Shown piece by piece: positions 2,895 to 7,018 of a stretch of DNA of 64,000 bases. The notes beneath the pieces are model-generated. The model was not told the origin of the DNA. It made no database searches and saw only the letters and a list, made by a program, of their open reading frames with translations. The number at the start of each line of letters is the position of its first letter. Within the stretch, counting starts at the first letter, position 1. The position numbers and the translations under genes are program-made. The DNA is from an uncultured delta proteobacterium. Lineage in GTDB: Bacteria > Desulfobacterota > Desulfobacteria > Desulfobacterales > Desulfosalsimonadaceae. The stretch covers positions 384,001-448,000 of the forward strand of contig CAWGYD010000001.1 in assembly GCA_963826785.1 (NCBI GenBank), written 5' to 3'.

Positions 2895-3512
2895 ATGGCT
2901 GTGATCACGATTGCACGCCAGTTCGGGGCCGGCGGGCAGACCGTCGGGCGGATGGTCGCTTCGCGGTTGGACTATCTTTTTCTCGATGATGCCATCATCC
3001 AGGAAATTTCCAGAAAAACCCGGGTGACCCAAGGGGCGGTCAAGGGAATGGAGTCGATGGCCGGCGGGTTTATTTCCCGCGTCATTACCGGCGCCATCAG
3101 CCGCAGCTATATGGAGCGGCTGATGGGTGACCGTGCGGGCTACATGGATGAAAACATCTATGTGGAAACACTGATTGCCGTCATCCGCGAATTTGCGGAA
3201 AAAGACAACGTGGTGCTCCTGGGGCGGGGCGGACAGTACGTCTTAAGGGATTTTGAAAATGCATACCATTTTCTGCTGGTGGCGGGAAAAGAGGATCGCA
3301 TCCGTTTTATGAAGAACACCTATCACCTTTCCGAATCCAATGCAGCCGGGGCCGTTGCGGACGGCAGCAAGCGGCGGGCCAACCTCTACTCCAAATTCGG
3401 AAGGACTGACTACAATGATCCGTCCCTTTACCACCTGATCTTAAACATGAGCAGGATCAGCGTTGAGCAGGCGGTTTTGCAAATCTGCAGCCTGGTGCAA
3501 AAGAGTTCCTGA
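2895..3512 (+). CDS. Cytidylate kinase-like family protein
   Basis: VITIARQFGAGG N-terminus, VLLGRGG, DPSLYHLILN. Confidence 0.9.
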   Translation: MAVITIARQFGAGGQTVGRMVASRLDYLFLDDAIIQEISRKTRVTQGAVKGMESMAGGFISRVITGAISRSYMERLMGDRAGYMDENIYVETLIAVIREFAEKDNVVLLGRGGQYVLRDFENAYHFLLVAGKEDRIRFMKNTYHLSESNAAGAVADGSKRRANLYSKFGRTDYNDPSLYHLILNMSRISVEQAVLQICSLVQKSS

Positions 3513-3538
3513 ACGAAACGAACTTTTTGCCCGAAAGT

Positions 3539-3862
3539 TCAGCAACAGGCTGACCGCGATTTCTTCCCTGCTTGCGTCGGTTCGATCACACAGCAGCATT
3601 CCGAACCTGAGCGGCCCAGAAACGAGTTGATGACCGCGGCCGCACACCCGACCCCGGCATCGACCCGGATCGCGTCCGCCGGGCAGTTTTTGGCGCAGGC
3701 CCCGCATTCCATGCAGGCATCCCGGTCCGCAATTTTAGCGCAGCCGTTTTCCAATTGAAAAACCGCGTGCGGACAGACCACCGTGCACATGCCGCAGCCC
3801 ACACAGGCACCTTCATCCAGTTTCAGTGTAACCACATCTTTCAGGTACTTCATCTCGTTCAT
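3539..3862 (-). CDS. hgcB: Mercury methylation ferredoxin HgcB
   Basis: Two CxxCxxCxxxCP motifs including the diagnostic CMECGAC; GVGCA; Cys-rich C-terminus; directly downstream of hgcA. Confidence 0.95.
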   Translation of the reverse strand: MNEMKYLKDVVTLKLDEGACVGCGMCTVVCPHAVFQLENGCAKIADRDACMECGACAKNCPADAIRVDAGVGCAAAVINSFLGRSGSECCCVIEPTQAGKKSRSACC

Positions 3863-3878
3863 TGTTTCTCATTGTTTT

Positions 3879-5048
3879 TTACATCTTTAAGGCGAAACCC
3901 ACCCACAGGATCAGGCCTGCGGCGGCGGCTGCGATCTGTGCCGGAACCGCCCGCTTCATTTCTTTTCTGACCCCGGAAAGCGACGTGTAGGTGGATGATC
4001 CGGTAAAATTCATTCCCAGAAAAGAACCTGCCGCCGCGGCCATCAGGGCCAGTGCGGCAAACGGCATCAGTGGGGGCAGACTTCCGGAGAGGCCGTCCCA
4101 CAGGAACATTACCGTGACCGCACAAACAAACCCTGCGGCGGCACCCTTGACGGAAAAGGACCTCCCGGGAAGCCACGGCAACAGCAGCGGGGTGAGCACC
4201 GTTCCCCCGGCCAGGCCCCCGACCAGAACAGCCAGGGCAAACAATCCCGCCCGGGGATCAAACGAATCCATCGGGGAAATCAGGCCGCCCAGGAGGAACA
4301 GAACGGGAGCAGCCAGCAAAACCCATTTCAAGGTCGGGACCAGCTCCATGGGGATCAGGGCCGCGCGTTCGGCGATGGGAAATGTTTTGCGCCGCATCTG
4401 CGGCGTGGCTTTTTCCCCGCAGTCCAGGAAGCGCGGGAGATCGGCAGCCTCCACCGGACCGTAAACAACCGAGAATCCGGATTGTTTCTTCACCATGTGG
4501 GCGGCGATTCCGGGAGCGCCCAACTGCGGCAGGATCAGCTTCCGGTGACTGACCACGGTGGAAAGTCCGCTGGCCCGGATTCGCAAAACCAGTTCATCCG
4601 TGCCGAAAGTGCCTTTTCCTGCGGCGCACCAGACATTGATGCCCCGGGTGTCCAGCACCAGCATCCATGCAGGGCGGCCGGAAAGCTGCGATCGGAGCCG
4701 GTCAAAGCTCATCTTGTAGTTGGCTGTCACCAGGACGGGGGACTGTTCATCCGGATTTCCGGCGGCATACAGCCCGGGGTCCACGGTATAGGTCATGCGG
4801 CCGATTCCCCACCGGGCTTTGACGGTGCCCCACCGGTCCGCAGGCTCAAGTGCGGTGGGAATCCGGGGGATCGGTCCGGATGCGGTTTCCACCTTTCCCA
4901 TGACAAAAGGCTGCGTTGCGCGGGGGCGTTCAAACTGAACCCGCTTCCGGGGCGGTCAGCAGGAAGCGGAGGAAGCCGGCTGGATTTCAGCCTCGTTTAC
5001 GGTCGCCGCAATATTGACCGGAAATTCATTCATGTCGGTTTTGGCCAT
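3879..5048 (-). CDS. hgcA: Mercury methylation corrinoid protein HgcA with N-terminal extension containing an in-frame UGA (probable selenocysteine), 389 aa
   Basis: Cap-helix motif NVWCAAGK, TANYKMSFD, C-terminal TM region with NFTGSSTYTSLSGV. ATG at 5048 (AGGA RBS) is in frame with the 4901 ATG, and the only stop between them is TGA 4956-4958, right after a Cys codon. Confidence 0.93.
4920..4944 (-). promoter_or_regulatory. Putative bacterial SECIS hairpin
   Basis: Minus strand, starting 11 nt after UGA: GCGG-GUUCA-[GUU]-UGAAC-GCCC-CCGC; G-starting apical loop 20 nt from the UGA. Confidence 0.6.
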
Positions 5049-5112
5049 TTCATTGTCCTGGATATGTTTTTACAAGGTATTCGAATCCGCCTGGATCCGT
5101 TCCGGGAACACT

Positions 5113-5140
5113 ATTTTAAGACATTTTCCGCTATTTTCAA
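5113..5140 (-). promoter_or_regulatory. Putative sigma70 promoter of hgcAB
   Basis: TTGAAA-N16-TAAAAT on minus strand, about 65 nt upstream of ATG 5048. Confidence 0.5.
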
Positions 5141-5297
5141 GATCAATCGTTATTTCGGCGGCCGCACTTGCTTCTTTCAGAACATATTTCCGAGGGGGGA
5201 TGCAACCCCCTTTTTTGCGGCTTTGCGAGAGAAAATTTCGCGTTTCATTTCATGGAAACGATCGGTGGCGTGAGCGGATCACCGGATGGGAATTTTT

Positions 5298-6713
5298 TTA
5301 CCGGGCAGGGGAGGCGCTTTCGGAATGGATTGAATTTCCGGTCGGTGACCGCTGATCCAAATGAAAGCAGCTTCCGGGTATGGATTTGACCCGCTTTTTG
5401 ACTTCGGCGCAGGCATCGTTGACCTCCAGGTACTGCCGGAAAGCCTGTTGGGACAGGTCCACCCCGGCCAGGCTGATGCTCATGATGGGAAAGACCATGT
5501 TGCGCTCCTGGCGGTCCTTGGCGGCGATGCATCCCGATTGGGCGTCCTTCTGGTCGTAAAAACGGGTGATTCCGTCGTCGAACCGGCGGATGATCTCCTC
5601 GCATACCCGCCGGCACTGATCGGAGCCGATCAGCAGGATGAAATCGTCTCCGCCGATATGGCCGATAAACCCTTGCTGCCCGTTATGTCCGGCGATGACG
5701 TCCTTGAAGATACCCGCGGTAAACCGGATCACGTCATCCCCCCGGGCAAATCCGTACTTGTCGTTGAAGGGTTTGAAGAAATCAAGGTCTGCATGGATGA
5801 CGCAGATGTCATGATTTTCTGATAGCGCCTGGTTGATCGCTTCGGCAACGGAGTTATTTCCCGGCAGGCCCGTGTTGGGATTGGCATCAAGGGCAAGGCG
5901 GTTGAGCATTTCCAGTTCAAGCATGGCAGTGCGGAGATTCAGGTGATTTTTCACCCGGACCTTGACGATTTGCGGGTTGATGGGTTTGATGACATAATCG
6001 ATGGCGCCGATGTCCAGGCCGCGGTATTCATCCGCTCCTTCATGCAGGGCGGTGATAAAGATCACTGGAATGTCCCTGGTTTTCGGGTTGGTCTTGAGCA
6101 GTTTACAGACGGCATACCCATCCATATCCGGCATCATGATATCGAGCAGGATCAGGTCCGGCGCGTTTTGCGCCACCATCCTGAGCCCCTGCCGACCGTT
6201 TTCGGCCACCAGTGTCTCGTATTCGGATCCCAGAACATCCACCAGGATGTCAATGGTGAGCGGATCATCGTCTACGATCAGGATTCTGTGCCTTGCCTTG
6301 GCCATTCGGTGCGCCGGCGGTGCGAATTTTTTTTCTTCCGTCTCGTTGCGCCTGATTCGGCTGATCGAACCCAGGACTTCAGCAAGCGCATCGTTGAATC
6401 GGGTGATGGTGCCGCTGTTTGCCGTCAGGTTCCCGTCAGCGGCCGCTTGTTCGAGGTCTGCCGCCGCGTGCTGCAGGGATTGTGCGCCGAAGATCGCAGC
6501 GACCCCCTTGATGGAATGGGCCGTGCGGCGCACCCATTTTAAATTATTTTTTTCACAGGCTCTCGTCATCAAGCGTACGGTCTGCCCGTATTCATGGTCA
6601 AACGTCTGGAGAAGAGAAATGCAAAGGTCATTGTTCCCCTTGAACCACCTCTGCATCTTTTCCATATTGATGCCCGGCAAGTGAGCGGGCAAATCGCCTG
6701 ACTGATTTTGCAT
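5298..6713 (-). CDS. Hpt-REC-GGDEF diguanylate cyclase/response regulator
   Basis: Hpt AHSIKGVA; receiver ILIVDD...LLDIMMP...KP; cyclase DLDFFKPFNDKYGF and GHIGGDDF; start could be GTG 6728. Confidence 0.9.
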   Translation of the reverse strand: MQNQSGDLPAHLPGINMEKMQRWFKGNNDLCISLLQTFDHEYGQTVRLMTRACEKNNLKWVRRTAHSIKGVAAIFGAQSLQHAAADLEQAAADGNLTANSGTITRFNDALAEVLGSISRIRRNETEEKKFAPPAHRMAKARHRILIVDDDPLTIDILVDVLGSEYETLVAENGRQGLRMVAQNAPDLILLDIMMPDMDGYAVCKLLKTNPKTRDIPVIFITALHEGADEYRGLDIGAIDYVIKPINPQIVKVRVKNHLNLRTAMLELEMLNRLALDANPNTGLPGNNSVAEAINQALSENHDICVIHADLDFFKPFNDKYGFARGDDVIRFTAGIFKDVIAGHNGQQGFIGHIGGDDFILLIGSDQCRRVCEEIIRRFDDGITRFYDQKDAQSGCIAAKDRQERNMVFPIMSISLAGVDLSQQAFRQYLEVNDACAEVKKRVKSIPGSCFHLDQRSPTGNSIHSESASPAR

Positions 6714-7018
6714 GCGCAATTTTCTCACAAAAAATGAATTTATATTTTGAATTGAAAAGAACCGGTGGAGACGATGAGAAGCATGGGCGGAAAAACCGCA
6801 GCATGCATATTAGATGAAATTACAAACTTACACCAAAATTCTAAAAATGCAATATCAGAGTGCGTTTTCCAAACAAATGCAAGGATTTTTGCAGATAAAA
6901 CCATAAAATGCAAATCCACTTTTGGTTTGATAAATATCACTATCCGGTATATCGGAGTTGGTTGATTCGATCGGCATCATGCCGTTAAATCGCAAGCAAG
7001 CTGTATGGAAGGGATAAG

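Follow-up and report, generated by a model that had tools for sequence, protein, structure and literature searches.

A probable selenocysteine HgcA with an unannotated N-terminal extension in an uncultured member of the Desulfosalsimonadaceae

The hgcA gene of an uncultured delta proteobacterium, carried on the 64,000-nucleotide stretch of DNA analysed here (the window), raises the question of where its translation begins and how a stop codon within the extended frame is read. Gene callers start the gene at ATG 4901, and the protein is recorded in the public protein collection as the 340-residue form from that position. The same frame is entered 49 codons upstream, at ATG 5048-5046, and continues to the stop at 3881-3879 with a sole internal stop, a TGA at 4958-4956 that lies immediately 3' to a TGC (4961-4959). 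A preliminary description of the window had proposed this longer frame, with the TGA after a Cys as its only stop, and all of its coordinates and the predicted peptide hold. The gene is present in single copy in the genome. Its product scores 451 bits on the HgcA model NF040863 (cut-off 275) and has five hydrophobic segments; both the cap-helix Cys motif and the five transmembrane helices are present. The features of the gene are as follows.

3879..5048, minus strand: full-length hgcA (389 residues with predicted Sec31, 41.3 kDa; the form from 4901 is 35.9 kDa)
4902..5048, minus strand: unannotated 49-residue N-terminal extension of HgcA (from column conservation and pLDDT)
4959..4961, minus strand: TGC codon for Cys30 (Cys in 78 of 84 aligned proteins)
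4956..4958, minus strand: in-frame TGA, putative selenocysteine (Sec) codon 31 (60 of 94 loci, the present one counted, have TGA here in the alignment)
4899..4901, minus strand: Met50, the gene callers' start (no Shine-Dalgarno sequence upstream; Met in only 2 of 60 TGA loci)
4614..4637, minus strand: cap-helix motif N-V-W-C-A-A-G-K with the cobalt-binding Cys141 (columns invariant or nearly so)

Cys141 is the equivalent of Cys93 in HgcA of Pseudodesulfovibrio mercurii ND132, for which the cobalt-binding role is given in the available part of PMC7305189.

Homologous loci were used to ask whether the TGA is conserved. The best 80 of 562 confirmed relatives were combined with 19 places in 31 genomes of the same family or order; four of these places had no cap-helix motif and one (L088) duplicated L030, and after their removal the set comprised 94 loci including the present one. 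Because the ranking used the extended query, the sample is biased to close and extended forms. A TGA was found 106-108 codons before the cap helix in 60 of the 94 loci, where the residue pair would be CU in 55, GU in two, and SU, QU and TU in one each. Another codon at like spacing was found in 16 loci (10 CC, four CxC, one CS and one CR), 14 of them with Cys-Cys or Cys-x-Cys. Eleven loci had a different spacing (eight CC at 111, one CU at 112, one CC at 102 and one doubtful GU at 113), and seven received no call, five being motif-less and two having no cap helix in the retrieved piece. Similarity among the HgcA sequences runs through the UGA site, and CU aligns there with Cys in the non-Sec homologues. 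The comparison suggested in the preliminary description, a search of homologues for Cys followed by Cys or Sec, bears out its reading, with Cys conserved in 78 of 84 aligned proteins and Cys pairs in 14 of the 16 non-TGA loci. It had also called the arrangement rare, and here it erred: the TGA occurs in 60 of 94 loci of a set biased to close relatives, and most HgcA proteins are selenoproteins according to the accessible text of Haft and Gwadz (bioRxiv 10.1101/2022.07.06.499078). The predicted Cys-UGA arm is common in this lineage.

The site is without CU and without a Cys pair in seven homologues (L010, L018, L044, L047, L066, L078 and L081). The hgcA gene of L047 appears frameshifted. L044 has TCA (Ser) at the Sec site, yet its hairpin of the kind described below is perfect, and its sister L080 has TGA; the Ser codon may be either a recent loss or a sequencing error. 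In five loci the putative Sec has no Cys before it and the hairpin is intact (L031 and L082, GU; L038, SU; L062, QU; L067, TU).

Conservation within the extension is uneven. Residues 1-28 are variable (column conservation 0.21), S-C-U-P at 29-32 is conserved (0.70), and residues 42-49 (0.69) approach the core of the protein (0.76); P42 and Q46-P47-F48 are conserved and lie within the folded domain. In an AlphaFold2 model built on an 84-row alignment with Sec read as Cys, mean pLDDT was 88.8, with values below 50 at residues 1-31 and 97 at residues 41-50. Since residues 41-50 are modelled so confidently, the folded domain begins before Met50, and a start at 4901 would therefore cut off folded residues. 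The model also places Cys30 and Sec31 at the end of what is predicted to be a flexible arm. A search of PDB sequences matched only corrinoid Fe-S proteins and no HgcA chain. No Shine-Dalgarno sequence was found before ATG 4901, and the present locus is one of only two among the TGA loci with Met at the equivalent position. When ATG alone was counted (GTG and TTG excluded), the first one after the UGA lay 53-55 codons on, inside the domain, in 37 of the 60 TGA loci, and 55 of the 60 have an in-frame ATG upstream of the UGA. Comparison with homologous sequences thus supports the upstream start, and hgcA almost certainly begins 49 codons before the position chosen by gene callers, with one UGA read as selenocysteine.

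Two candidate expression signals precede ATG 5048.

5056..5059, minus strand: Shine-Dalgarno-like AGGA, 7 nt before ATG 5048
5113..5140, minus strand: sigma70-like promoter candidate TTGAAA-16-TAAAAT (consensus match only, 10 of 12)

Both had been pointed out in the preliminary description. The ribosome binding site is where it was said to be, at 5059-5056. The promoter-like site is likewise present at 5140-5113, but is weak when taken alone, as two such sites were found in the region and shuffled sequences gave 0.7 ± 0.9. It falls in the gap after the upstream gene (5298-6728, minus strand), which encodes an Hpt-REC-GGDEF protein, and there is no ArsR-like gene before hgcA here. The upstream ORF is one that we take to be ArsR-like in 16 of 87 clustered hgcA loci, and presumably MarR-like in 12. 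A second ATG at 5053, in another frame, opens a 7-codon ORF (5030-5053, minus strand) that overlaps the hgcA start region; it stands just 2 nt away from the AGGA and is probably incidental.

Decoding of UGA as Sec in bacteria would call for a SECIS element shortly downstream, and a SECIS-like hairpin had been noted at the following position.

4920..4944, minus strand: putative bacterial SECIS hairpin (conserved core 4940-4928, loop G at 4935)

This hairpin is the minimum-energy fold (-9.8 kcal/mol), with the loop G 20 nt after the UGA. Its stability by itself is at chance level, with z from -0.21 to +0.90 in four of four folds against shuffles, so that its significance can come from homologues only. 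In these, positions 18-22 counted from the UGA pair with 27-31; the stem has 5 bp, and G is the second of the four loop nucleotides. At least four of the five pairs can form in all 59 other TGA loci, versus two of the 16 non-TGA loci. Because the TGA loci themselves had supplied this register, a separate bSECIS-like filter, written from the bacterial SECIS model in PMC13188914, was applied; it requires a hairpin 16-37 nt beyond the UGA, with G as the first or second loop base and an energy of at most -7.5 kcal/mol. The present hairpin passes, against a background of 155 of 1050 ordinary TGA stops of the genome (15%), as do 49 of the 59 other TGA loci versus two of the 16 non-TGA loci. Among 54 aligned sequences, both sides change in six of seven pairs. 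The covariation score of 0.234 was reached in none of 500 shuffles and lies above all slid controls, in a statistic that kinship inflates. RNAalifold returns the same 5-bp stem; an Rfam scan of 3300-5400 gave nothing at E <= 1. By these alignments the predicted SECIS element is conserved with the UGA, lost with Cys, and covarying.

The present copy departs slightly from its relatives. Its 3' arm is shifted by one base, leaving a 4-bp core (4940-4937 with 4931-4928) in which four pairs are kept, and the loop is 5 nt, or 3 nt if an A-U pair closes it. The segment 4928-4940 has one loop base more than in any of the 59 homologues, and the frame is restored a few bases later, which may reflect a natural change or two nearby assembly indels. 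In two DNA sequencing runs with small shares of this genome no read spans 4780-5400, and both this base and the TGA at 4956-4958 are known from the assembly sequence alone. With the bacterial SECIS consensus, as given in PMC13188914, the element shares a loop of 3-9 nt located 19-20 nt after the UGA, an energy within the -7.5 kcal/mol limit, and a G among the first two loop bases with U after it; it differs in that the upper stem has only 4 bp before a bulge.

These data bear on the idea that the UGA arose by sequencing error, stands by chance before a genuine start at 4901, or points to another genetic code. The many indel errors of the assembly (see below) and the chance-level stability of the lone hairpin would be in keeping with it, but the same TGA with a covarying hairpin in 59 other loci all but refutes it. 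In addition, long ORFs in this genome end in TGA more often than in any other stop (1050 of 2112), and hgcB does so too. We regard such an explanation as extremely improbable. The selenoprotein reading of the preliminary description is upheld by the UGA in 60 of 94 loci, by the covarying hairpin and by a family prediction already in print, and Sec is very probably inserted into HgcA by SelB.

The genes for Sec decoding in the host present a less regular picture. The genome assembly comprises 4.43 Mb in 11 contigs and is 87.8% complete. Of the expected selA, selB, selC and selD, the tRNA-Sec gene (selC) is intact at C2:46605 (75 bits versus a gathering score of 47); selA (C3:45278-46644) is in two frames, being one base short relative to six relatives; and neither selB nor selD was found in the incomplete assembly. 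A second 96-nt tRNA-Trp call at C1:229358 was rejected, since it lies inside a long ORF and pairs poorly. Of what the preliminary description named as refuting, a genome without Sec machinery, half is seen here, and assembly gaps and indels explain it. These gaps could mean that the Sec system is decaying in the host, the UGA now being a true stop with HgcA either unmade or restarted at 4901, and the Met at 4901, where most relatives have none, and the lengthened hairpin loop would fit such decay. Among 25 relatives at least 90% complete, all have selB and selD, and 24 have selA. However, the conserved selB-flanking genes of six relatives have no orthologue in the assembly, nor has the selD-flanking gene block of two of four relatives (L122 and L124); we take the neighbours of selB and selD in the relatives to be purM, tsaD, hemW, gmk, uvrA and others. 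A survey with 238 proteins from 400 kb of one relative, 127 of which had a scorable orthologue, found 13 of the 127 orthologues frameshifted, selA among them, although one or two of the 13 may be shadow frames. Indels are thus common in this assembly and, with about a tenth of scored orthologues affected, its apparent pseudogenes are to be distrusted.

Further putative Sec sites were sought with three family searches (MvhD-like, HdrA-like and formate dehydrogenase), so that the count is a lower bound. At least 11 UGA codons at Cys-equivalent sites were found, four, five and two in the respective families, most with a hairpin.

C4:350226, C8:41782, C6:660732 and C1:61886: Sec-type UGA in MvhD-like genes
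C6:94415, C8:38680, C4:347150, C1:799401 and C1:66211: Sec-type UGA in HdrA-like genes
C3:220975 and C1:515833: Sec-type UGA in formate dehydrogenase genes

At two of the MvhD-like sites U belongs to a CCxxU-type motif close to the N-terminus, and at two to a G-U-H motif. The loop AGGU, common in hgcA hairpins, recurs in three of the HdrA-like UGA hairpins. Two more TGAs (a second site in the C3 formate dehydrogenase gene and one in a C5 hdr gene) were not counted, being out of frame or terminal. The tRNA-Sec gene and these 11 other sites are intact. Because loss of Sec decoding would have cost the cell core UGA enzymes, gaps and indels are the simpler account, and the lack of selB and selD and the split in selA look technical, like assembly defects. 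With the absence of a Shine-Dalgarno sequence before 4901, and the folded residues that a start there would remove, we consider decay of the Sec system very unlikely.

The preliminary description stated, correctly, that HgcA with a CU extension had been predicted before. In the accessible text of Haft and Gwadz, 20 of 20 HgcA genes could be extended through one UGA, with PCUGP in all; a 2026 review lists HgcA NF040863 with the motif CU (PMC13188914), and PMC11588087 cites the J Bacteriol 2023 version of the prediction. As far as that text of Haft and Gwadz describes them, their proteins share with the present one a single in-frame UGA upstream of the annotated start and directly after a Cys, Cys-Cys counterparts in other homologues, an adjoining hgcB, and a length of 363-400 residues (389 here). 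The pentapeptide differs: it is SCUPP here, in what we call the xCUP lineage, instead of PCUGP, although their Fig. S7 may include xCUP forms. Among our 94 loci PCUGP occurs only in L097, and the UGA lies 107 codons before the cap helix here versus 111-112 in the (C)CGP/CUGP type. Whereas Haft and Gwadz could not confirm a SECIS element by server, by the available account, a covarying one is seen in the present lineage. In its corrinoid domain, cap-helix Cys and five membrane helices the protein resembles HgcA of ND132, as described in the accessible parts of PMC11588087 and PMC7305189. No experimental test of the Sec residue in HgcA was found in the literature searched, which mostly excluded subscription journals. 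Judged on sequence features, the predicted seleno-HgcA is a member of the published family in everything but the exact pentapeptide, host machinery aside. The CU extension is thus already published, and what is added is the xCUP subtype with a demonstrable covarying SECIS.

The distribution of Sec and Cys forms indicates repeated exchange. A quick tree built from 91 core sequences forces six or more changes (of no assigned direction) on well-supported branches, for the Sec and for the Cys labels alike. Loss of the Sec system as the source of the Cys forms was rejected, as none of the 50 hosts tested, which cover 50 of 80 loci, lacks both selA and selB. Among 23 hosts without an aligned UGA, 20 have selA and 20 have selB; among 27 UGA hosts the counts are 25 and 24. 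Eight genomes of the family or order carry the CC form at spacing 111; each of them has matches to selA and selD, and seven also to selB.

The gene following hgcA encodes its presumed partner.

3539..3862, minus strand: hgcB, dicluster ferredoxin (NF040864, 119.5 bits versus a cut-off of 99), the next gene after hgcA

HgcB has two 4Fe-4S motifs and a Cys, not Sec, at the Cys73-equivalent site. Its tail (3539-3620, minus strand) contains CCC and a terminal CC, with five Cys after the Cys73 equivalent, and a five-Cys tail is found in 49 of 61 loci with UGA-type hgcA. ND132 HgcB, in the available descriptions, is likewise a dicluster ferredoxin with Cys73 and a terminal Cys pair; three more tail Cys are present here. 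The gene ends in TGA, its relatives in other stops. A terminal Sec in HgcB was considered and rejected, the TGA being an ordinary stop with no SECIS-like hairpin after it.

The explanation that best accounts for the locus as a whole, and in which we place high confidence, is a selenocysteine-containing HgcA made from ATG 5048, with an accessory metal-gripping arm, in a genome whose sel gaps are assembly defects. Translation would start at ATG 5048, and SelB with Sec-tRNA, acting on the hairpin at 4940-4928, would insert Sec at codon 31. The product would be a protein of 389 residues that acts together with HgcB and has a flexible Cys30-Sec31 arm, a corrinoid domain and five membrane helices. 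Mercury is held more tightly by selenolate than by thiolate. There is about an even chance that the HgcA arm is an accessory soft-metal grip, by analogy with the Cys-Cys tail of HgcB. In HgcB, full methylation requires the terminal Cys pair, for which a role in delivering Hg to the corrinoid has been proposed (PMC7305189). The arm might take up Hg(II) thiolates or the methylmercury product and pass them to or from the corrinoid; it could improve Hg capture at trace levels with no strict need for it in catalysis, and Cys-Cys could substitute. The preliminary description had likewise supposed that the CU tail captures Hg(II) or MeHg. Lysates with a 37-kDa ND132 HgcA produced in E. coli show Hg methylation, according to PMC11588087. 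From the size of this protein, the construct used in the ND132 biochemistry was presumably the short form without the arm. Because the 37-kDa protein is active in lysate and seven homologues do not have the pair, the arm is probably not essential for methylation.

The Sec residue could also be inserted for a purpose other than mercury: native redox or cofactor chemistry, another soft metal or metalloid, or coupling to selenium supply. We give such a role a definite but lesser chance. The arm is dispensable or altered in some homologues and Sec and Cys have been swapped repeatedly, as the tree of 91 sequences requires; moreover, a 2026 preprint, as far as it was available, reports dechlorination of CCl4 by HgcAB (10.64898/2026.04.26.720869), and in the accessible part of PMC7305189 Hg methylation is generally not regarded as detoxification. 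On the other hand, metal-handling proteins, and HgcB too, repeatedly carry vicinal CU or CC pairs on flexible tails, and the five variants with Sec only suggest selection on the selenol itself.

Whatever the arm binds, synthesis of HgcA in this organism is rather likely to depend on selenium, because without Sec-tRNA the early UGA would stop translation and no good restart lies behind it. Against a functional need stand the five homologues with Sec and no Cys, and the Cys forms in Sec-competent hosts. It is possible, but doubtful, that in the xCUP lineage selenium gates Hg methylation twice, with no HgcA made without Sec-tRNA and the Cys-Sec arm being the real site of Hg delivery. Were this so, selenium would promote methylmercury formation at trace levels besides antagonising it, whether hgcA is of CU or CC type would predict how a methylator responds to selenium, and published HgcAB biochemistry would have used a truncated enzyme.

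Public gene calls of this hgcA start at the wrong position, which is corrected here. The lineage offers a clean case for comparison: its SECIS covaries and goes with the UGA, an internal start is not conserved, and Sec and Cys have been exchanged repeatedly in hosts able to make Sec. The supply of selenium would directly influence how much methylmercury is formed if the arm handles mercury or the UGA gates translation.
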